In this document: positions 2,755 to 64,000 of the stretch, in pieces
Layout: each line of letters opens with the position of its first letter
Numbering within the stretch: position 1 is the first letter of the stretch
NCBI RefSeq assembly: GCF_036971445.1
Contig: NC_091476.1
Span: 130,758,001-130,822,000, forward strand
Direction: 5' to 3'
DNA: 64,000 bases
Source of the DNA: Narcine bancroftii
Taxonomy: Eukaryota
The notes under the pieces: model-generated
The model's input: the letters and a program-made list of their open reading frames with translations, nothing else
Told to the model about the DNA's origin: nothing
Databases searched by the model: none
Made by a program: the position numbers and the translations under genes

Positions 2755-3126
2755 CTGTGGTTCTCAATCTTTTTCTTTCCTCTCACATACCACTAAGTAT
2801 TCCCTATGCCATCGGTGCTCTGTGATTAGTAAGGGATTGCTTAAGGTGGTATGTGGGTGGAAATAAAAAGTTTGAAAACTATTGTTCAAATTACACCTAA
2901 TCGACTCATTATGTTCACGGTTTCCTAACTCCAAAGGAAATAGGCCAATGACAATTTTTCTCAAGTAAAATATTTCAGTAACAATTGGGTCGAGGGCAAT
3001 GATTTCAACCTTCCCTTCCCACTCACATACCACACTAAGCAATCCCTTACTAATCACAGAGCACCGATGGCATAGGGATTACTTAATGTGGTACGTGAGT
3101 GGAAAGAAAAAGGTTGAGAACCACTG
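2755..3126. mobile_element. hAT (Charlie-like) MITE with ~115-bp terminal inverted repeats
   Basis: Termini c(t)gtggttctcaa...ttgagaaccactg; arms 2755-2870 and 3010-3126 are near-perfect reverse complements; ttctaac is repeated at both ends (TSD-like). Confidence 0.8.
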
Positions 3127-4885: not shown

Positions 4886-6089
4886 TTATCTAACTGTTAT
4901 TTGAAGGATTTTCTGCAGTTCCTCTCTGAGATCCAGTTGCATTTGTAAAGCTTGTTGGTAAGATAATGCCTTGTCACATGACTGGTATATTAATCTATAA
5001 CAATAACTTGTGCGTTTGTTCTGAGGATGACAGAAACTGTCAATCAACTCCATTCCTCTCACTGACTCCCTGCTGACACGTCTCACAATAGTGTGAAGTT
5101 CCAATTCATCTAGTTTACCATTGGTATCAACCCAGAAACTGACATCATGAGTGTAAGAGGGTGGATAGAGTGAGAAATCACACAAAGGTTTCAATTCTAA
5201 TCCACTAATCTGGTTCAGGAAGCGTTCATCAAATGTCCAAAGGAGCCTCCAGTCACTTAAATGGCAAAGCACCAGAGTCAGCAAGTCAAGGTTTATTGAA
5301 CCAACACAGACATTGAGTTCACCATTGATCTGTTGATAAGGAATGAGATCCAATTTTCCAACGGCTATATCTGTAAAGTCTGGCTGAACCATGTCCTTAA
5401 AATAAATATTCCAACATTTTCCACTGGTCTTCTCCTTAAACACAATTGGATACAAGCTCTTATCCATCTGGTAAATTTCAGAACCAGTGGTCTTTGAGGT
5501 TGATTTCACAAGGAATGCAATGGAGTTCGCTAAAGAGGACATAAACAGGCAAAAAAAATCTGGTTGTCCTTTATCAGTGAAAGCACCAACCAAAACCATC
5601 TCATGGAATGCAGGCATAGTTTGTGGAGTAATCAGGCATTTCTTGAAAACAGTGCCAGTGAGTACATGAATGACTTCAGCTCTGAAATCTGGTTGTTGCA
5701 GCACTTTGTTTAGGTATCTTATCAGAGTAGGGCAGAAATAGTATTTGCGGCAAACTGGAACTGCCTGTTTTATCAATTTGCAATCCACATTTTGTCCCAT
5801 CTTATTCTCTAGGCTCAGATCAGATATTTGCAATGAACATTCACTGCAAGAGGGCCTAGTTAAGCACCCACCATCACTGCTTCTGTCTCGGTCAACTCCA
5901 CAACTGGAACAGGTAACAAAATAAAGCTCGGACTGATGAATGTCAGATCCTACATATGGGTATCCAGTGTGACATAGGAGAGGAAAGTTGTTCTCCACTT
6001 CCTGAACATTCACTCTGGCTGCAATCTGCTTCGTCAACAGTTCTCGAACGACATTCACTGGATGATTTGAACCTTTCTGAAGAAAATTT
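4886..6089 (-). CDS. FDXACB1: FDXACB1 last coding exon (PheRS-like middle region and C-terminal ferredoxin-fold anticodon-binding domain)
   Basis: Acceptor tttttgcag at 6090; open frame with DWRLLWTFDERF, LYPPSYTHDVSFW and SYCYRLIYQSCDKALS to TAA at 4886; phase 2 matches the preceding exon. Confidence 0.95.
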
Positions 6090-6535
6090 CTGCAAAAATA
6101 AGAAAAACTGTCTGAGGTTAAGGCCAATATTTCCTTTCATTCAGAGATGCTCAAACAAGAGTTAGTGGTGGAAGCAAGAGATTGCAGATGTTGGAATTTG
6201 GTGCAGAAAGCAACTGCTGCAGAAAGAAAGCAAGTCGAATAGCATCTTGGGGGGGCGTCAACATTTTAGGTTGAGACCAGCATAGAAGGGAGATGGCAGC
6301 ATAAAGGGGTAACTGGAGGGAACTTTGATGGGGGGATGGTGTTAGAAGGGGTGAGAGAAGATTGGAAATACAATAGTCAGGCGGTAATAAGTGGAAATAC
6401 AAAGGACTGCAGGGTGTGGAATCTGAGAAGGTAGGTGATGAGAGAAACCAGATAAGGGAGGGGTGATGGGCAGATTGAAGCATTTGGGGAGGGGTTGGAA
6501 ACCCAGACAGAGGTGTGCGTGGAACCAAACTCAAC

Positions 6536-7039: not shown

Positions 7040-10000
7040 ACAATGGGTCTGCCCGCTTGATTTAAGGTAGCAGCCAGGGCAAAATCTGAGGCGTTGCTTT
7101 CCACTTGGAATGGCTTAGATTCATCAATAGCATGCATGGATGCTCTGGCAATGTCTTCCTTGATAGTAGCAAAGGGCTTGCTCTGAGAGGGGGAAAGAGG
7201 ACGCTTTGATGAGACGTTTTAGGCTTTGTCGGTGTAGCGAGTGTTATGGAGTCGAGGCCCCAAAAACCAGCAGCACTAGATATTCACCACAGCACAGGGT
7301 TACTTAAACAAAAGTAGTTTTTAATTGTAATTGAACAAGAAAACAGAATTAAACTTTAACTTATTACTTAACCTACCTAACCTACTTAATCCCCCCTCTA
7401 ATACTAAGCGCAGGTGTGTGTAATGTATATTTAAGATTAGAAAAGCTCTTTATATCACAGTCCAATCTCACTGGTTGCAGGCAATTCTTGTACTGTGCAC
7501 AGAAGTTAGCATTAACAAAGTTCACCAGGCTTTGGAGTTTAACAGGCAAATGGTTACCACTCAGGAGGGTTCTTGCTGGTTTTCAGAGAGATTCATTTTC
7601 CAGGACATCCGCAACTGATTCCTTCTCAATCAGTCTTGCTGACAAAACTTGCCCCCTTCAGGGTTCTCCAGATGATCTTCTTTCTTTCAGGTCACCTTTC
7701 AGACCGCCAGTCTTCTCCTTTGACCCAGGCAGCCTTCCAAAGTTTGCCAGCTTGTCCCTCTGGAACTGATTTCTGTCTCCTTTCTCTCTGTTTCACACCC
7801 TCCCTCTCTGAGAGCAAAACTGTTCTCTCCACCATGCAAAAATCACATGTTCCTAGGCAAGCTGCTGTCGATACTTTGTTGCCTCTTGCAAAAAGCATTC
7901 TGCAAAAGTCCTGCAAATATTCTGTGTTTTAAAATGTGTGTGTTCAAGCTGCTCTAATGATTCCTCCCAAACCACCTCTAGATACTCTGTCACGCAAGGT
8001 ACCTACTAGGCATAGTAGCAGAAAAATCCCAGACATCTTTTAAAGGCTTTATGAGTTGTAGGGACCAGTAGTTCCATGAGAGGGCACATCCAGTCATTAT
8101 GACCACATAGCCCAGGATAGACAACTTAGTTACACGGAAAATGCACTTTAGTTCATTGTACGTGAGGTTTAGGTTCTATGCAAATTTGAGAAATTAGTGT
8201 TATGGCCCTGTAAGTTGTGACCACATATTATGATGTTATCCAAGTTGGGATAAGTGGCGGTTAGGTTACTGCCATCCACCATGCGGGTCCATCTCTCTCT
8301 GGAATACAGATACTCTCTTAGTGGCCCCAAAAGGGAGACGCAGAGAAATTGATATAGCCTACCGTCAGCTTCGAAAGCCATATAAATACAGTCACTTTAA
8401 TGAATGGGCAACTGGTGATAGGCAGATTTCAAGTCTATGGTGGAGAAAACCTTGTAGTGGAGAAAACCTTGTAGTGGGCTATTTTGTTCATCGTGTCATT
8501 TATTCTTGGTAAGGGATCAGCATTAAATTAAGTGAATTTGTTTATAGTTTGGTTGTAATCGACAACTATCTGATTCCCTGTTTTACTACTACAACTTGAG
8601 CATGCCAGGGGCTGGCGCTGGGTTCGATAACATCTTTCTGCAGTAGTCGTTGTACTTCTGATTTGATGAATGACCTGTCAGCAGCAGAGTAGCACTGGCT
8701 CTTGGTTGCCATGGGTCTGCAATTGGGTGTGAGATTGGTGAATAGTCGCCACAGGGACACACTCAGCGTCGAGAGGTTGGAGGAAGGTTGTCTGACTACC
8801 AGAGGTGGATGAGTTCATTATAAGCTAGGGTTACACTTTCATGCTGGCACTGGAAATCCAACCCTAAGAGCACAGGGGCACAGAGATTGGGTAGGATGAG
8901 CAATTTGAAATCTTTCTATTCAGTACCCTTAATCAACAGGTCGGCAAGACAGTAGCCATGTACCTCTGCAACATGGGAGGTAGAGGCTTGGCTAATTTTA
9001 CAGTCAGTGTTTTGCACTTCGAGAGCACAGATAAAACTCTCGGTGCTTCCACTGTCAAACAAGCAGTTTGTAGAGTTTCCATTTACTTCTATATTCAACA
9101 TGGAATGGGTTAAACCATGGCTACGTGCCTGATTTAGTTCCAGTGAGGCAAGCATTGTCGGTGTTGCATCATCCTGTTCTTCATGTCGCTCGTCTTCAGA
9201 GGGCACTGTCCAACTAGATTCGCACAAAGCATTGTGAGCTGGTGGGAGATTTTGAGATAAGCAGGGAGAAGGGATTGATGACTTTTCCCGTTCTTCTCCA
9301 GAGTTAACAGCAGTTTTGGTGGTCCTTCTAGAGAGTCATCTGCAGACCTTTCTGTAGTGACTCCTCTTGCAGCATTTACATACACAGCCTCTCTAGCAGC
9401 TCATCAGGATCTCGGGTGCTTAACTTGTCCACAGAAGTAGCATTTCAGCTGATTTCATGGATCCGCAGCCATGACAGGGTCCATGGCCGAGTCTTGAGTC
9501 TGGCCATTTGGGCAATTCGCCAGAGAATCGAGTAGAGTAGGGCCACGTGGCCACAATTCAGCAGCCAATTCAGACGAGTAGATATCACCCCTTCTAAGCT
9601 CAAGGTCTAGAGACTTGGCGATTCTTATAGCTTGATTTAAATCCAACTCATCTGTCTCTAGCAGCCACTGTCTCACATTTCACTCCAGAGACCAATGAAT
9701 CCAGGACCAGTATATCAACAAATTCTTCTGCAGACTTCACTCTCCTTAATCCCAGGTCACGAAGGGTCAAGATAAAGTCACTGATCGACTCCCCCGGCTG
9801 CTGCTTGCAAGTCGCTAGCAAGTTTCTGGGATGTACTTCATTCCGCTGGCCCACATTTTCTTCTCTCAGAGCAGCGATAGCAGCCGAATAAGTCTTTGTC
9901 CCTTATCAGCACAAAGGCCTTGGTGCCTATCCGGGAGAGAAGTAGGAGTAGCTTCTGCTCATCATCCACTATCCCAGCTGCATTTAAAAATGCTTTCAGG

Positions 10001-10565
10001 CACCACAGCCAATACTCAAAGTGAGTCGCAGCCTCCGGGGCTCGTGGGTCGAGCTCGAGCCCGTCCAGTTTCATAATTTGCTCCATTCTTACCAGAGGTC
10101 GAGGTCTGGGCGCAGGCATCTGTTCCGACTGTACAGGAGGCTGCACTGGCTGTGGGTCTTGAACATGCACCAGTGCTGCAGCCCCCAGAGGAGGGAGCGG
10201 AGGTGGAGGAGGCAGTGTTGAGCCTCCAGTTGGTAAGCCCATGCTCCACCATTTTCTTCATCCCTTGACTCTTTTCAGATCGGGCACTACTTTTGAAACT
10301 CATCTCAAATGAACTTCGCTAAAAAAATTGAACTGCAGTCAATACCTCATGAGACAGGAGTTATGCAAATAACATCCGCTTTTATTAGCAAGAAAATGGC
10401 AGTGTTAGCCATCTACGAGCCTAGTCCCAATGTGAGCTGAGAGCAGTGGACAGGAACACTTATATACAAGCAGGGGGCTACTTCCCCCTAGTCAGTCTAT
10501 AGCACTGGTCCTCCATTCCAGCCAGCAGCGAGCAATTATAAGCAATTGCATTCTACATACAACCA
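7040..10565 (-). mobile_element. Ty3/Gypsy element (5' LTR, gag, protease, RT), degenerate, in an FDXACB1 intron
   Basis: gag (LELDPRAPEAATHFEYW, RNLLATCKQQPGESI), protease (CLFDSGSTESFI) and RT (IEPSASPW, VFSTIDLKSAYHQL, xLDNII, RCLGFFxYYA); LTR at ~10329-10565. Confidence 0.92.
7242..7994. mobile_element. Solo LTR (~750 bp) nested in the Gypsy pol gene
   Basis: TG...C(A>G) ends with 4-bp flanks cgag/caag; removing it rejoins the RT frame GFFCYYALxVPRYTDKA. Confidence 0.8.
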
Positions 10566-10569
10566 TGGA

Positions 10570-13340
10570 ATACCAAGGATCGCCACAGTGTCAAATAAAG
10601 GAAGCAGAAGCAAGAGGAGTTCGAGAACAAGCTCCAGTGTTTCAACTACTGCATCTACACATTTAAAGGTTCAGGTTGACGTGGCAGCACTTGAAGCATA
10701 AAAAGAAATGTTTCAAATTAAATTGGCCTTAGATGAGTGGGAGGAGCAGATAAGAATAAGACCAAAACAGCTACGGAGAGAAGAGGAGCATAGACAGGAG
10801 CAGCTACAGAGAGAAGAAGAGCTAAGACGAGAGCAGTTACGGAGAGAAGAGGAGCAGCTGTGGATGGAAAAGGAGCTGCAGGAGGAGCAGCTAAGGAGGG
10901 AGGAAGTCCAGGTAAAAATGCAATAGGAACTGGGCAAAATAATTGCTGTTAATCAGGCCAGGATGAAGGCACTAGAAGGCTCTGCAGTATCTGGTCCTCA
11001 AAGTAAATTATCTAAAGTGTTTGCCACTGTGGAGCTACGTTTGGAGGAAGGATATTAAAAAAAGATAATATTTAATACCAAGGCTTTGCCAATGCCGCGG
11101 TTACAAGACATGCATGGTCCTGAATTATACAAGTAAAGGCACGTTGATGCCAGTTCTCAAACCCCAATAATGACCCCAATGGACAAAGATGTGAGCCCAA
11201 TGCCATCTTACAAAACAGAATACCACCCACTCCTGATAGGTAATAGAAATCCAGGTGAACAAAGTAACTTTTGCCCGGGCATGACAAGCCAAGATGAAAT
11301 GACTGCATCATTAATTCAGTTATGGACTCTTTCTTCTCTGCCCAAGAGAAAAATTCCAGTTTTTGATGGTGACCCACTTCAATTCCAAGCATTTATGAAA
11401 AACTTTAAATGCAGTATTGAAATTAAGAGCCAAAACTCAGAGGATTGTCTATATTATTTGGAACAGTTCATGAGTGGACAACCACAAGACCTTGTGAAGA
11501 GTTGCTAGCATATGACTCCAAAAAGCTAAGTTCTTACTAACTAAGCATTTTGGCAACAAGCATAAAATTTCTACAGTAAAACCAGATGACATGAGGGTTT
11601 ACAAGTTTACACACTCTTTCTAAGAATATGTTGCAACATCATGATGGAGATCGGCCATCTTAAAAGAGCTTGACATATCTACTAATATCTAATCATTATA
11701 GATAAATTACCCTACCGGATGAAATAACTATAGACAGCTACTTTTGAAGATTTGGTGAAGTTCATTGAAGGGCATGTGGACATTGTCACAGATCCAGTGT
11801 ATGGAAAGGTCAAAGGCACTCAAACAGTGAGTAAAGAAGTTTAGATCTAAATTATACCCTCAACCAAATTTTTAAAAAAATACATTTGCCACCTCACTAG
11901 CAATGAAGGATAAAGAAATTAAGGAAAATGAAAATTTGCCTTATGAAAATAAATCTTTGCTCTGTAATGGAAAAGAAGACACATAGTGAATAATCATTTT
12001 TTGAAAGTAAATTAAATATGTTTTGTCTGTCTGTGTCAAGTAAACATTAGCAAAAACTGCAAAAACTGCTTCGGCTGCAACATATGTAGTTAAAAGTATC
12101 CTAAAATGCTAAATATCTTCCAGGAAAAGAAAACAGAAAAACCAAAAAAGCAGATGAAAACAATGCAGAAGCCTTGGTATTGACATATGGTCCTACTGGG
12201 GCCAGAGGGAACAACTGCAGACTTTTGACACAGATTCCAAGAACTGCTGGTCTTCCTTTGAAGGTTCTTGGTCATCCCTGATGCACTCAGGAAAGTCATT
12301 CTTGAACTTTTAAGAATCAATATCTTGATGATGCTTGTAGTCGATAGATTTTAAACTTTTCTTTTTCCTAATAGTCCATTAGTCAAGGCCAAGAAAGAAA
12401 GTGCAATAAAGCATATTTATCCACTTCTTGACCCAGGAACCACTGTGTCATTTGGCACCATGGGGCTAATGAATGTTTAATTTTCAAGGAAGAAGTACAA
12501 AAATTCTATTGAGAATCTCAGGTCAAGTTAAACACATTGAAACGAACATTGCTTCGGGCCTAGAGATTGCTGGACTGGACAGTAACAATCTTTGTGAACT
12601 TCCAGGCATATACACTCAGAAGACTATGCCTGTGCATAAAAAAATCCCACAACATTGAACCATGGACGCATTTGAAAAATGTTTGTTTATGTAAAATCAA
12701 CTCTAAGAGATCGAGTTCAGATGCACCAAAAGCTCTGGAACCACCAGATATGATAAAGAGTATAGGAGAAGGGCCTTGCGCGGCCAAAGCTATGCTTGGT
12801 TGGATGATTAATGGACTATTAGGAGAAAGAAGAGGTTTAAAATCTATCGACTACAAGTATCAACAAGATATTGATTGTTAAAAGTTCAAGAATGACTTTC
12901 CTGAGTACATCAGGGACGACCAAGAACCTTCAAAGGAAGACCAGCAGCTCTTGGAATCTGTGTCAAAATCTGCTAAGCTGGTTAATGATTATTATTGCAT
13001 TGCATTACCTTTGAAGAAAAGGGAAATATGCATACCCGATAATAGAAGTGTTATCGAACAACAAACACTGAATTTAAAGAGAAGATTCAAGAAAGATACT
13101 TCCTTTCACTCAGACTAAATCATGTGCATGTCTAATGATACACAAAGGATGTGAACAAAAAGTTTCAGATGATATATTGGAACATGGTAATGGCAAAAAA
13201 AATGGTACTTACCACACCATGGGATTGTGCATCCGCTTAAGAAAAAAAACTGTGTGAAGCAACCTTTTGAGGGGGTTTCACTAAATTCCCAACTCTTTAC
13301 TAGTAACATTACACTGTCTTTAATAAAAGCACCCATTACA
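10570..13340 (+). mobile_element. BEL/Pao LTR retrotransposon internal region (gag, protease, start of RT), degenerate
   Basis: Ser-rich and EQLRREEE coiled-coil gag; LPKRKIPVFDGDPLQF...LYYLEQF (DUF1759-like); Cys/His knuckle at ~12020-12110; protease LLDPG; APKALEP...LGWMING; WYLPHHGIVHP. Confidence 0.88.
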
Positions 13341-22204: not shown

Positions 22205-22780
22205 CTTCTACCAGGCACCTACCTCACTCCATGTTAAAAAAAAACACACCCCCATCACCCACTTACTTTACCTTAAACACATGTCCTCTAGCATGAAAGG
22301 GTTAGCAAATAAAGAGTGTATTACAGCTCTTAGCCTGTATTTGTGGGAATTTAGGAGAATGAGGGAGGATCTCATCGAGACATTTTGAATGGTGAAAGGC
22401 ATAGACAGAATAGATGTAGAAAGGATGTTCCCCATGGTGGGAGCATCTAGGATAAGGGCACAACTTAAGGGTGTCTGCTAAGAAGAGAAATGTGTAGTGT
22501 AAGAATTTCTTCTGCAAGAGTGGTAAATCTGTGGATTTTTTTTGCCACAGGCAGTTGTGGAGGCTAGGTCTTTGATGCCATGGCTAATCAAGAAACTATC
22601 TCTCTCTTAAATACACCCAAAGGTTATGGGGAGAAGGCCGGGCAGTCGAGCTGAGTGGGAAAATGGATCAGCTCATGATTGAATGGAAGGGCAGACTCGA
22701 TGGGCTGAATAGCCTATTTCTTGTGGTCTTAATTTTACTTTGCTGAGAAGATTCTGACTCTCCACCTTATTAGCTTTTAA

Positions 22781-23020
22781 TTTTTTTTTTAATTTAGACA
22801 TACAGAACGGTTACAGACCATTTCGGCCCACAAGTCCATGCCACCCAATTTACACCCAATTAACCTACAATCCCCAGTATGTTTCGAACAGTAGGAGGAA
22901 ACCAGAGCCTCTGGAGGAAACCCATGAGGAGAACATACAACCTCCTTACAGACAGCACATGATTCAAACTCTGGTCCCGATCGCTGGCGTTGCACTAACC
23001 ACGACGCCAACTGTGCCACC
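22781..23020 (-). mobile_element. tRNA-derived SINE
   Basis: Pol III A-box-like and B-box-like (gagtttgaatc) head on the minus strand, conserved body, A-rich tail. Confidence 0.85.
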
Positions 23021-23284
23021 CTTTTAAACAATGTCTCACTTAATTTTATGAATCTTTATCAGGTCTTCCATCAGCCTCCTATTCTCTCGAGAAAACAACT
23101 CAAGTTTGTTCAATTTCTCCCCGTAACTCATATCCTCTAAACCAGGCAACATCCTGGTAAATCTGTACCTTTCCAAAGCCTCCAGATACTTCCTGCAATA
23201 GGGCAATTAGAATTGTAGCCTAACCAAACTTTTACACAGCTGCAACATGCAATATAGATCAGACATCACAGAAACACAGGAAAA

Positions 23285-23520
23285 GCACGGTTAGTGTAGC
23301 GGTTAGCGCAACGCCTTTATGGCACCAGCAATCTGGACCAGGGTTTGAATCCCGCATTGTCTGTAAGGAGTTTATACGTTCTCCTTGTGACTGTGGATTT
23401 TCCCCGGGGGCTATGATTTCAAAATCTATCGTTGGTGTAGGTTAATTGGGCGGCATGGACTTGTGGACTGAAATGGGCTGTTATGGTGCTGTATGTCTAA
23501 ATTTTTTAAAAATTAAATTT
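23285..23520 (+). mobile_element. tRNA-derived SINE, same family, opposite orientation
   Basis: gcacggttagtgtagcggttagcgc (A box), gggtttgaatccc (B box), and the 3' end gctgtatgtctaaa shared with the 22781-23020 copy. Confidence 0.85.
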
Positions 23521-25989: not shown

Positions 25990-27678
25990 TAGTCATTCCA
26001 GCAAACCAGATCTCGATAGGAAGACCAGGTACTACCTATGGAAGGCTATCTTAGCAGCAAAGAAGCAATTACGAATGAACTACAGCTAAGGCAGGGTTTG
26101 CAGGCCATTACATCTTTCAAGGTGAAGCCTAACATCTAAATGGTTGTGATGCTTCATTTCCCAATAAGATAAATACATTTTACACTCGCTTTGAAAAGGA
26201 GAATTCAGCTGTACCAGTGAGAGTTCTTGCAGAAGCTGGCGACACAGGTGATACCTGTCTCTGAGGCCATCTTTCAAGAGGCATCAGACTCTGATGGCGA
26301 ACCTGGCAGGGTACTGAAAATCTGTGCCTACCAACTAGTTGGGGTGTTCATTAATTTTTTCAATCTCTCATTGCTGCAGTTGGAGGTTCCCAGCTGCTTC
26401 AAAAAGGCATCAATCATATTCATGAAGAGCAGGGTGAGCTACCAAAATGACTATTGTCCAGCAGGTCTCACATCTACTGTCTTGAAATGCTTTAAGAGGT
26501 TGTTCATGGCCAGAATTAACTCGCATCCAAATTCACCTACTGCCACAATCATTCCACAGCAGATGCAATCTCACTGTCTCTCCCTTTGACCCTGAATAAC
26601 CTCGACAACAACAATACCTATATCAAGCTGATATTCATCGATTGTAGTTCAGCTTTCAACATCATCATCCCCTTAGTACTGGTCAGCAAGCTTCAAAACC
26701 TGGGCCTCTGCCTTCCTCTGCAATGGATCCTTGACTTCTTCATTGGAAGACCACAGTCAGTGAAATTCTCCTACACAGTGATGCTCAACACAGGCACTCC
26801 TCAAAGATGTGTGCTAAGCCCACTTATCTACTCTCTCTATACTTATGACTGCGTGGCGAGGCACAATTCAAATGCCATCTACAATTTTTCCAATGACACC
26901 ACAGTTATTGGCAGAATCACAGATGGCAATGCAGGAGGGAGATAGATCAGCTAGTTGAGTGATGTCACAACAACCTGCACTCAACTAAGAAAATGATTGT
27001 TGACTTCAGGAAGAGATAACCAGAAGAACATGAACCAGTCCTCATCGAGGGGTCAATAATGGAAATTTATGGGTGTCAATACCACTGAGGATCTCTTCTG
27101 GGTCCTCTATGTTGAGGCAATCATGAAGACGGCTCCTCAGATGCTGTATTTCATAAAGTATTTGAGATTTGGTATCTCACCAAAGACGCTTGCAAATTTC
27201 TACAGATGCACCATGGAGAGCATTCTGCCTGGTTGCATCACTGTCAGGTATGGAGGTACCAATGCACTGGACAGGAAAAAAAACCTACAAAGAGTTGTGG
27301 TCAGCCAGCAGCATCACGGGGGATCAGTCTCCACTCCATCAATGACATCTACAAAAGATGTTGTCTTAAGAAATCAGACTCTATCTTCAAGGTCTCCCAC
27401 CACCCAGGTCACTCCCTCTTCTCACTGCTAGGATCAGGGAGGAGTCTGAAGACGAACACCCTGTAGCACAAGAACAGCTTCTTCCCCTCAACCATCAAGT
27501 TTCTGAATGGACAATGAACCACAGCCACTACCTCACTTTCTCTCCTCGTATACTAATTTTTAAAATCTTGTATTTCTCAATTGTATTTGACAGCAAATTT
27601 GCATCTAGTTCTGCACAATACTGCTGTCACAAAACAAATTTCACGGCATGAGTTCATGACTATAAACTGGATTCTGGT
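25990..27678 (+). mobile_element. Rex-Babar-like LINE ORF2, degenerate
   Basis: VLKICAYQL, VPSCFKKASII, FIDCSSAFNIIIP, GTPQRCVLSPLIYSLYTYDC, NFYRCTMESIL; tail ctggattctgg. Confidence 0.88.
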
Positions 27679-27714
27679 TCCTGTTCGACCACCCCATCCC
27701 ACCTCTCACCCTCC

Positions 27715-27960
27715 CCTCCCCCTCTCCCCTTCCCCTCCCTCCTCTCCCCTTCCCCTCCCTCCTCTCCCCTTCCCCTCCCTCCTCTCCCCTTCCCCTCCCT
27801 CCTCACCCCTTCCCCTCCCTCCTCTCCCCTTCCCCTCCCTCCTCTCCCCTTCCCCTCCCTCCTCTCCCCTTCCCCTCCCTCCTCTCCCCTTCCCCTCCCT
27901 CCTCTCCCCTTCCCCTCCCTCCTCTCCCCTTCCCCTCCCTCCTCTCCCCTTCCCCTCCCA
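27715..27960. repeat. Polypyrimidine/polypurine tandem repeat, 20-bp unit CCTCTCCCCTTCCCCTCCCT x ~12
   Basis: Directly visible near-perfect array. Confidence 0.97.
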
Positions 27961-28045
27961 TGCACCTCCCCCGTTCGGTGCCTTCTAAATAAGTTCTAAC
28001 TGTGTTCTAAACTTCCCGGACCACAATCCCAAAATTCGTCCCGAA

Positions 28046-34656: not shown

Positions 34657-36209
34657 CTACAGAACAGAAGATTTAATCTGATGAGTATTCTAGGTTCATT
34701 TGGAAAAAAAATAGATACTTTGCCAAAAATACAAGTCACTCAGATATTGCAGTTTAAAAAAAAAAAAAAAAATCCTTGGCTGATATAGTTGTGAAAGTTT
34801 CCAATGTTTTGAAATGAGAAATAAAATTGTTTCTTGAACTCAGTGATAGAAGACAAATAGGCATGAACACTTTGAACAGAAAGCAAACTAAATAACACAA
34901 AATCTATACTGCCTTGTCTACAAAATGGTATCTGGATACAGTGTCAATGTGGAGATGATTAAGAAATGGGTATGAATGTGGGCTGTCTGAAATTGCACTT
35001 CATGTCATTTGTGGACAAAAGGGAGGCTGGGTCTTCTGGTTCAATCTCTTCACATTTGAACACAGAATAGACATTTTGGCTGCTCTGCTTCTAAACAACT
35101 CCATATTCCTATCTCTGCCTCAAAATATTCAAAGACTCTCCTGGTGCCCTTTTATGAAAAGACTCTCAATCCTCTAAAACAAAACAATCACCTCATCTTG
35201 GTCTTAAATGTATGACCTCTTAATTAAATGTTACCCCTGGATTGGAGTACTTAGAAATGTTGTAAAAAGCAAAAGGTATCGATTTGTAAAATTGGTATCA
35301 TTAAACATAACAGAAGGGAAAATCCACAATTCCTTCACTCACTCAACATTGAATTCGTGTTGAAGGGGCAACACATCTCAGTCGACAACAGTTTTGTATG
35401 TAAAATTGTACTGAGATCTCACTGACATTCTGTGGTAAATTCAAATGCTCCCATTGAGGAGTCCCTGACAGGGAGCCTCATTTATTGCTTTTTCCCTGAC
35501 CGCCACTCATTTGATGTGTGATAGTGGTCAAATTTGTACTGCTTAAATTGGTCTGAATCATTGGAAAAACTTGTCTGCCTCTCTATTTCCTCTGTGTCAT
35601 ATGATCATAAAGGGTTTCAGGGCGCACATTAACCTCTGTTGAGTGAGTGGAGGAACTCTGGGTTTGCCTTTGTTATGTTTAATAGCACCAGTTTTACAAA
35701 TCGATACATTTTGCTTTTTACAACATTTCCAAGTTCTCTAATCTATTTAAATATATCATCAGAATGTGTTCGCTGGTAAAGGACCGATAGAAAAGGAGAA
35801 AAAGAATCTAGCAACACCAGTGAATATTTCTCCCTGCTGAATTTACAGAGCTAACATCAACATATCATTGAGTTGAGATTGCTGTGTGCATCAGGCACCT
35901 TATCCCAGAAAAATATGTATTTATAACATTGGTTCAACTACTCTCATTGACTCAGCCACTTACTGAACTACACAGGAGTCTGCAGACACTAGAAACTGAA
36001 GCTAAACCCACTCTGCTGGAGGATTGCAATGCATTGGGCAGCATCAATAGGGGATAAAGAATAGTTGTCAACGTTTTGACCCAAAGCTCTTCATTGAGAC
36101 TTTAACAAGGCCTTTATCGATAAAGGGTATCAGCTCAAAATGTCAACCATTCCTTTTCTCCACCTGATTCTTCTCCAATCACTGTGTTCATCCAGCAGAG
36201 TGTATTTAA

Positions 36210-62595: not shown

Positions 62596-63060
62596 TGTGG
62601 TGATATGCCCACCAAACTACTGGAGAGGGCGATCTCTGCACCTGCAGGAAAACCACCTCAGGGGCTGATTCCACCTGGCCGGCTGTCCGGGCCCGGGGCT
62701 CCTCTGCAAACACATGCAGGCCCACAAATCTGACCTGCTAGTCTAGCAAGTGCTCTTTCTCCATGCCAACCAAAACTACGGCCATGACAGGTACCGCAAT
62801 CACCATGATCTGGCCCCTCCTGAGCCAGTCACACGGGGAACCACCAGGGCATGAACTGGTGTCCAGACTTATACTGGAATAAATTGTGGTGCGCTGAGGT
62901 AGCAGCAAGCAAGCATAAACTCAGAAAGACTGTACAACAAGCTTTATTCCAGTAAAAGTCTGAACACCAGTTCGTGGCTTGGTGGCTGCCTGTGTGACTG
63001 GTTCAGGTTTAATTCAGGTCGGCTGATTAACAGCTGGCCAGGTGAAGTCAGCCCCAGTGT
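62596..63060. mobile_element. Tail-to-tail pair of related LTRs (plus copy 62596-62883, minus copy 62885-~63060)
   Basis: 65-bp ungapped inverted repeat 62819-62883 / 62943-63007 (56/65 identical) and a second inverted match at ~62660-62687 / 63029-63055. Confidence 0.75.
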
Positions 63061-64000
63061 CCGCCCCCAGCCCACCTATGGCCTCTCCACACTATGGGTA
63101 ACCCCTCCAGGCCTCCTCAACTACCTTACATCAGACAACAAGCCCATATCTGCCAAGAGCAGGTCCGATCGCGTAGCCGACATGGGCTTCATGAAGGCAG
63201 AAGTGAGGCGGCTTCTGGAGGAAGGTATCATAGAGCCCAGCACCAGTCCCTGGAGAGCAAAAGTCCTAGTGGTAAAAGGGGGTAGCAAACTGAGGATGGT
63301 CATCGATTATAGCCACACCATAAACTGGTACACCCAACTGGCCGCCTACACCCTACTCCAATTAGCCATCATGGTCAATGAGATAGCCCACTATAAGGTC
63401 TTCTCGACAATTGACCTAAAATTGGCCTACCACCAGCTCCCTATCCATGCCTGGAATAAACCATATACTGCCTTCAAGACAGACAGATGCCTCTACAAGT
63501 TCCACCAGACCCCATTTGGGGTCACTAACGGGGTCTCTGTTTTTCAGTGGGAAATGGACCACATGGTAGACTGGCACAACCTAAGAGCGACCTTCCCGTA
63601 CTTTGACAATGTCACCATCTGCAACCACGATCAGCAGAACCACGATGACAACCTGGAGAGATTGCTCCGGATGGCCGAGGAGCTGAACCTCACTTAAAAC
63701 AAAGAGAAGTGCATGTTCAGCACCATCTGCCTTGCCATCCTAGGGTACATCGTGGAACATGGTGTCCTTGGTCCTGACCCAGAATGCATGCATCCTCTAA
63801 TGGAACTGCTCCTCCCCCATACGCTGAAGGCCCTCTGAAGGTGACTTGGGATTTTCTCCTATTACTCCCAGTGGGTCCCCCATTTTTGGACATCCGCCCA
63901 CTGGCCCAAGCCACCACCTTTCCCCAACCACCCCCCCCTCCCCGCCCCCCAAGGCACAAGCAGATTTAGCTCACATCAGGCAGGACATCGCCATTGCCAA
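63060..64000 (+). mobile_element. Ty3/Gypsy pol (RT) fragment, running off the window end
   Basis: IIEPSTSPWRA, RMVIDYS, FSTIDLKLAYHQL, PFGVTNG, PYFDNVTIC, LGFFSYYSQWVP. Confidence 0.92.

Follow-up and report, generated by a model that had tools for sequence, protein, structure and literature searches.

Self-priming has been demonstrated experimentally for Tf1 in fission yeast and is predicted for its relatives and for two plant lineages; in the excerpts of the sources on which we draw, Tf1, Tj1, Tosmo and the Tf1/sushi chromoviruses are described as priming with the 5′ end of their own RNA (PMC10085805, PMC4600332), and Tf1 DNA as often carrying a terminal, single-stranded copy of the primer site (PMC11042837). 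The plant elements Tcn1 (Gypsy) and TAR (Copia) are predicted self-primers with at least 10 nt of LTR complement located 0–5 nt after the LTR, according to the excerpted part of PMC6317226. Similarly excerpted, PMC6934838 describes the fungal Copia element GalEa and bivalve TRIM elements as being without a tRNA site, and PMC3601003 discusses hairpin priming as possibly ancestral.

We analysed a 64,000-nt stretch of DNA (hereafter the window) from a genome of 3.3 Gb, in which a first-pass annotation had proposed that a Gypsy element pairs its primer-binding position with the poly(A) region of its own LTR, as a variant form of self-priming. Like Tf1 and Tf2 of Schizosaccharomyces pombe, Tj1 and Tosmo1–3, the elements concerned have the Gypsy pol order and no tRNA site, and as in the Tf1/sushi group the primer site complements a segment of the element's own LTR over about 11 nt or more, with extra loop helices possible. 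They differ from that group in that the LTR segment, here called the partner, usually holds the poly(A) signal and is predicted to lie inside the leader, in the absence of a chromodomain (usual, although not universal, in Tf1/sushi) and in their palindromic by-products, none of which we found for Tf1/sushi in the literature searched. In retroviruses such as HIV-1, the poly(A) hairpin and U5 occlude the 5′ poly(A) signal; as there, the AAUAAA of the present elements would be paired in the 5′ context only, but the HIV-1 hairpin is not the primer, and a tRNA primes. The complement of at least 10 nt reported for Tcn1 and TAR is found in the present families too, although lineages and hosts are different and the excerpt of PMC6317226 makes no mention of the poly(A) signal. 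GalEa and TRIM elements likewise lack a canonical primer site, but the hairpin described for them, as far as the excerpt goes, lies within the internal region and not between LTR and primer site. The literature searched, with most subscription journals and Repbase reports outside its scope, held no account of priming in this clade or of such palindromes. As judged from sequence, the clade-wide signature is real and the elements would work like Tf1, which does not imply membership of Tf1/sushi.

Results

The family A element of the window

The following parts of a decayed Gypsy element, assigned to family A, are present in the window:

10329..10587, minus strand: 5′ LTR, from TG at 10587 to CA at 10330–10329, 259 nt, 86% to the 3′ LTR of element L150
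10459..10466, minus strand: TATA-like box, predicted from the window sequence and family copies
10380..10392, minus strand: partner segment containing AATAAA, most copies having GCC directly after the segment; predicted self-primer, with a cut predicted at its 3′ end
10315..10328, minus strand: one-base spacer (10328) and primer-binding position, the reverse complement of the partner, decayed here
7046..10313, minus strand: decayed gag–protease–RT (to 7994) and a displaced RNase H piece (7241–7046), with numerous stops and frameshifts

The LTR end, partner, spacing and TATA box that had been placed here by the first-pass annotation all hold on the sequence. An initiator-like A at 10433 is the predicted transcription start, with the TATA-like box 31 nt before it; the partner reads CTTGCTAATAAAA at 10392–10380, 51 nt from the LTR end, and inside that end the spacer A at 10328 is followed by seven T and AGCGAAG (10327–10314). 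The G that had been read as bulged within this primer site is a substitution in this copy. The Ty3/Gypsy hallmarks of TG...CA LTRs, a 5-nt target duplication and a polypurine tract are present in these elements; the window copy lacks its 3′ LTR, none being found within 8.7 kb. The element is situated upstream of, and on the same strand as, a 416-residue open frame (4886–6136, minus strand), which ends in a ferredoxin-fold anticodon-binding domain (PF03147, E 6e-11) and is probably a host exon.

Taken by itself, the window copy might be a chance match in a decayed, A/T-rich element: it pairs at 10 of 12 positions ungapped, its perfect complement from the LTR end spans only 4 nt, and the complement is not above chance when compared with shuffled LTRs (p 0.73). 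The family as a whole reads differently. We sampled 30 loci out of 41 family A matches, 23 of them 5′ LTRs and seven 3′ or solo flanks. At least 10 of 12 positions match the complement of the AATAAA segment in every one of the 23 5′-LTR copies (mean 11.0; seven perfect), against an average of 3.7 of 12 in the seven control flanks, and in none of the 23 does TGG, which a mature tRNA primer requires at its 3′-end position, occur within 5 nt of the LTR end. The self-complement of the primer position is real; it is established by the family and is clearer in other copies than in that of the window. Both the missing TGG-starting tRNA site and the complement to the element's own AATAAA segment, as originally annotated, are thereby borne out, the latter by the family and not by the decayed window copy.

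Pairing and covariation across families

The ordinary 5′ LTRs of a second family, family B, carry a primer site of 15–17 nt with different letters, which is again the complement of their own AATAAA segment. Further families came from metagenome contigs. A scan with a single protein found nothing there, and one with an RT alignment yielded 80 loci, of which 14 short ones were omitted and 66 screened. Repeat pairs were present in 24 loci, and 19 of these are LTR pairs in nine families (L064 and L065 look like one insertion); five were set aside, namely L063, L075, L083 and L086, which are not LTR ends, and L117 (418 nt, without a TG...CA end), which shows no pairing signature. Eight of the nine metagenome families have a perfect complement of 12–19 nt and the ninth has one mismatch, as compared with means of 3–5.5 nt for shuffled LTRs and 0–6 nt for 3′ flanks.

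When one copy from each of the 11 families was aligned by its duplex, 130 of the 132 cells at positions 1–12 were Watson–Crick pairs, against 32–45 in slid controls, a comparison that favours the unslid count because partner and offset were picked as the best match per family; the variety of pair types, 2–4 at each of positions 3–12, is not produced by such register fitting. Primer site and LTR partner covary, the letters differing by family while the cells remain paired. Beyond position 12 the pairing decays (45 of 88 cells), with positions 13–16 still paired in 8–10 of the 11 families. GCC directly follows the partner in eight of 11 families, and an A stands exactly 11 nt before the partner end in eight of 11, family A having a T. 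The motif A(A/T)TAAA lies inside the partner in eight of 11; the three families without it pair equally well, and masking of the poly(A) signal therefore cannot be the general reason for the pairing. The interpretation first proposed is partly supported: its tRNA independence is well backed by sequence, while the specific variant, with a transcription start predicted from TATA/initiator spacing, is a candidate.

Individual insertions are also informative. In a young family, L073 differs from L072 at three of 220 LTR sites, one of which lies in the partner and is accompanied by the complementary change in the primer site, as primer copying would yield from a single mutation. Mismatches have stayed uncorrected at duplex position 14 in three insertions of family M3 and at position 2 in L066, suggesting that the copied primer may be only 11–13 nt. 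The LTR differences of 18 young metagenome pairs show no recurring site. In families A and B, a TATA-like box stands 30–31 nt before an initiator-like site located about 41 nt upstream of the partner; a box at a fitting distance is found in one other family only, the motif scan giving none in eight of the nine metagenome families, two of them with incomplete LTRs.

These data bear on a plain Tf1-type reading, in which transcription would start at or just inside the partner, the first 11–13 nt of the RNA (ending AAUAAA) would be the primer and R would be very short. It has precedent in Tf1 and Tj1, which prime with the RNA 5′ end according to the excerpted sources (PMC10085805, PMC4600332), and it is favoured by the A at −11, which has initiator-like context in several families, by a duplex that is near perfect to position 12–13 and then decays, and by the heritable position-14 mismatch of family M3. 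The continued pairing of positions 13–16, the T at −11 in family A and the distant TATA/initiator arrangement of families A and B speak against it, as does a discordant LTR marker described below, which would fall in U3, where other markers agree. We regard a start at the partner as possible but rather unlikely.

tRNA comparison and predicted RNA fold

Among 31 host tRNA genes, covering 10 isotypes only, the best internal match to the primer sites is 4 nt and the best 3′-end match 1 nt. In predicted folds the central duplex has a pair probability of 0.85–0.99 for 12 of the 13 copies, against 0.11 for the decayed copy of the window; A(A/T)TAAA, where the partner holds it, is fully paired, and loop helices (cf. 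the three-duplex 'pretzel') are predicted but vary between the copies folded. A spliced primer was considered and is unneeded, the complement being contiguous in unspliced LTR sequence.

The hairpin could nevertheless be purely regulatory, hiding the 5′ poly(A) signal and aiding packaging, with priming left to a host RNA, for instance an internal fragment of a tRNA. The fully paired poly(A) signal of eight families would suit such a role, and the tRNA comparison spanned few genes and isotypes. However, the complement begins one base past the LTR end, where the 3′ end of a primer must sit, and eleven different primer sites would call for as many host RNAs, each with the sequence of the respective family's LTR; moreover, three families pair without any poly(A) signal. 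We accord little probability to a hairpin that does not prime. The missing TGG, the covariation in 11 families, the one compensated change and matches of at most 4 nt to the 31 tRNA genes compared all support self-priming, and we consider tRNA-independent self-priming in some form likely, with a probability of about 0.85.

Fold-back insertions

A 65-nt inverted repeat at 62819–63007 of the window falls within a family B insertion of the following structure:

62596..62883, plus strand: left end of the fold-back, from U3 to the end of AATAAA
62884..63055, minus strand: spacer base and inverted family B LTR (U5, R and part of U3), with its own partner at 62943–62957
63056..64000, plus strand: family B pol (RT), continuing past the window with RNase H, integrase, polypurine tract and a normal 3′ LTR

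The interval 62872–62954 had been annotated as a recurrence of the same geometry in a different LTR family. The junction is indeed the same and the family different, but the site belongs to a fold-back product and not to an ordinary 5′ LTR. The whole unit is 3254 nt, with a spacer T between the end of AATAAA and the inverted LTR and with flanks matching at 4 of 5 positions. Its left U3 contains an insert (62688–62805) that is a near match to the integrase region of the same element, some 2.4 kb further downstream.

Fold-back insertions total 18 (17 of family B and one of family A), ten of them with target-site duplications; in family B, 5-nt flanks match at 4 or 5 positions in nine of 17, and most of the others are without one end. 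The other 16 family B fold-backs share the junction seen in the window. Six are full palindromes, in which the whole LTR and an A are followed by the inverted LTR sequence that runs from AATAAA back to the opening TG, and two have a deletion in one arm; of the remainder, five are missing most of one arm and three (L145, L147 and L264) join exactly at the partner end and then return to the normal U5 end, although L264 may be a simple 25-nt deletion. The family A fold-back (L267) has a perfect target-site duplication, and its arms have private variants in common; a search for the exact family A fold-back junction gave no match, and one when two mismatches were allowed. Two exact junction patterns for family B found 8 and 11 fold-back junctions against 24 and 40 ordinary ones (2 shared), a rough ratio, as the patterns are unequal in length and solo-LTR formation also removes full elements. 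Six LTR queries revealed no inverted LTR copies in the metagenome loci, these loci having been picked by RT and not by LTR.

The palindrome arms differ by 8–20%, which marks the fold-backs as old insertions and not as chimeras of the assembly; subfamily markers vary among them, suggesting repeated origins; arm-to-arm distance failed to separate palindromes from background, and markers alone were informative. Divergent arms and target-site duplications are unlike what read chimeras would show. Together with the counts within family A and across families, the target duplications refute the notion that the pairing is a chance match and the fold-backs assembly artefacts, to which we give practically no credence. 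It should be noted that any primer of such sequence would give fold-backs, which are therefore evidence for pairing at the DNA level and not for RNA priming: they show that both segments paired during replication, not what primed the minus strand.

Two other unusual products were seen. L011:1466–2217 (751 nt) joins a family A LTR, its primer site and some 330 nt of gag to an inverted U3, and its flanks agree at 4 of 5 positions; this is another aberrant product with two U3 ends. At L215:86–373, a polypurine tract precedes a family B 5′ LTR, indicating a tandem element that shares one LTR, and tandem formation is described for Tf1 in the excerpt of PMC11042837.

LTR marker discordance in family B

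The marker set comprised 63 family B 5′ junction loci, 38 of them with a 3′ LTR. When the two LTRs of each element were compared, all 26 scored pairs were concordant for a two-base insertion in U5 (independence would predict 6.8 discordant pairs; p 0.0004), all 21 for a transversion in U3, whose rare allele occurs in only one pair, and 24 of 27 for a TATA transition. A T/A marker located 24 nt past the predicted start, just upstream of the partner, disagrees between the LTRs in 15 of 31 pairs (independent LTRs would give 16.5); among the 16 pairs whose target duplication is intact, 9 are discordant. The discordance runs 12 to 3 in direction (p 0.035), palindrome arms agree at the site in eight of nine cases (p 0.02), and weak linkage connects it with two further LTR markers (p 0.03 for each, from non-independent copies); together these points argue, modestly, against a symmetric mutation hot spot, although the T allele perfects a small hairpin and a U3 duplication of 55 nt is likewise confined to one LTR of a pair. 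Links to internal variants are weak, the best p among about 230 columns being 0.001, with transitions prevailing. The window fold-back has A in both left arms and T in the 3′ LTR, a pattern that our reconstruction does not explain. In all five pairs with this duplication (L197, L203, L206, L224 and L153), just one of the two LTRs has the 55-nt U3 unit doubled; one arm of L036 has it in 4–5 copies.

If the discordance is real, it fits a start-to-partner stretch that reaches both LTRs from different templates, as seen at one site in one family; separate templates for this leader stretch would in turn fit a primer cut from the 5′ leader, with that leader left uncopied in the first minus-strand product. 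A different source for the primer would be the 3′ copy of the partner, the transcript being trimmed from its poly(A) tail to AAUAAA so that its end pairs with the 5′ primer site. In its favour, no loss of the 5′ R would be required, the second strand of the palindromes runs U3–R–partner and then directly into minus-strand sequence, and three insertions join exactly at the partner end, one of them doubtful as a possible deletion. Yet a 3′ primer predicts one leader template for both LTRs, whereas nearly half of the scored pairs differ, and the arms of read-through palindromes should differ about half the time at the marker, where all but one agree. We consider a 3′-derived primer improbable.

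Relatives of the elements

Relatives (P0069, P0070 and others) have the order protease–RT–RNase H–integrase, and their RT is nearest to that of Ty3 among solved structures. Full-length homologues encode a Gag-Pol of about 1200 residues with the Gypsy domain order, in elements of 4.0–4.6 kb, and none of seven full-length Gag-Pol relatives has a chromodomain at the integrase end at E 0.05. Their hosts are cartilaginous fishes, corals and other cnidarians, arthropods, a nematode, a flatworm and a mollusc, with the closest named homologues in sharks and rays.

Discussion

The mechanism that we favour, although we hold it with no more than even confidence, is that the 5′ copy of the partner, cut at AAA/GCC inside the leader, would serve as primer. 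The TATA/initiator spacing in families A and B, the pairing to positions 13–16 and the behaviour of the LTR marker lead us to prefer this internal 5′ primer. Specifically, a stretch of 12–17 nt from the element's own LTR, ending AATAAA(A), would replace the tRNA. In families A and B, the spacing of the TATA and initiator-like sites suggests a transcription start about 41 nt before the partner. The 5′ partner copy would fold onto the primer site, thereby hiding the 5′ poly(A) signal too. The RNA would then be cut at the conserved AAA/GCC, the probable enzyme being the RNase H of the element, as it is in Tf1, and the short minus-strand product could jump to the 3′ end via the approximately 20 nt of R that remain after the cut. 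The copied primer at the end of plus-strand strong-stop DNA would be complementary to the LTR of that same DNA, and mis-pairing of this end with extension back through U3 may generate palindromic DNA with two U3 ends that integrase could insert.

More tentatively, and with the balance somewhat against it, we envisage an animal-wide Gypsy clade in which an internal piece of the leader is both primer and poly(A) signal, combining a 5′ silencing hairpin, an escape from LTR equalisation and MITE-like palindromic by-products. A large non-chromodomain clade across animals would mean that self-priming arose again or is older than thought, with consequences for the question, discussed in the excerpted part of PMC3601003, of whether LTR elements acquired tRNA priming late. 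Self-priming elements would be expected to evade silencing by tRNA fragments that target the primer site, and LTR finders that require a tRNA site would overlook them. Fold-back insertions may be viewed as genomic fossils of a replication intermediate and as a source of palindromes in genomes, and may be misfiled as DNA transposons. The discordant marker also calls for caution against dating such elements by LTR identity alone.

Other repeats

Several repeats were seen in passing. Positions 12223–12968 of the window hold an inverted repeat with 143-nt arms, 93% complementary and 460 nt apart, in sequence that we take to resemble BEL/Pao pol. Nested inverted repeats with arms of 77 and 61 nt occur at 22777–23517, a tandem array with a 20-nt period at 27653–28012 and an inverted repeat with 73-nt arms at 35240–35743. 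A MITE-like family with terminal inverted repeats of 60–80 nt, unrelated to the LTRs, is represented at 2791–3088 of the window and at L016:2520–2878 and L054:2210–2574, and L042:383–881 is a near-perfect palindrome of 500 nt that is unrelated to families A and B.
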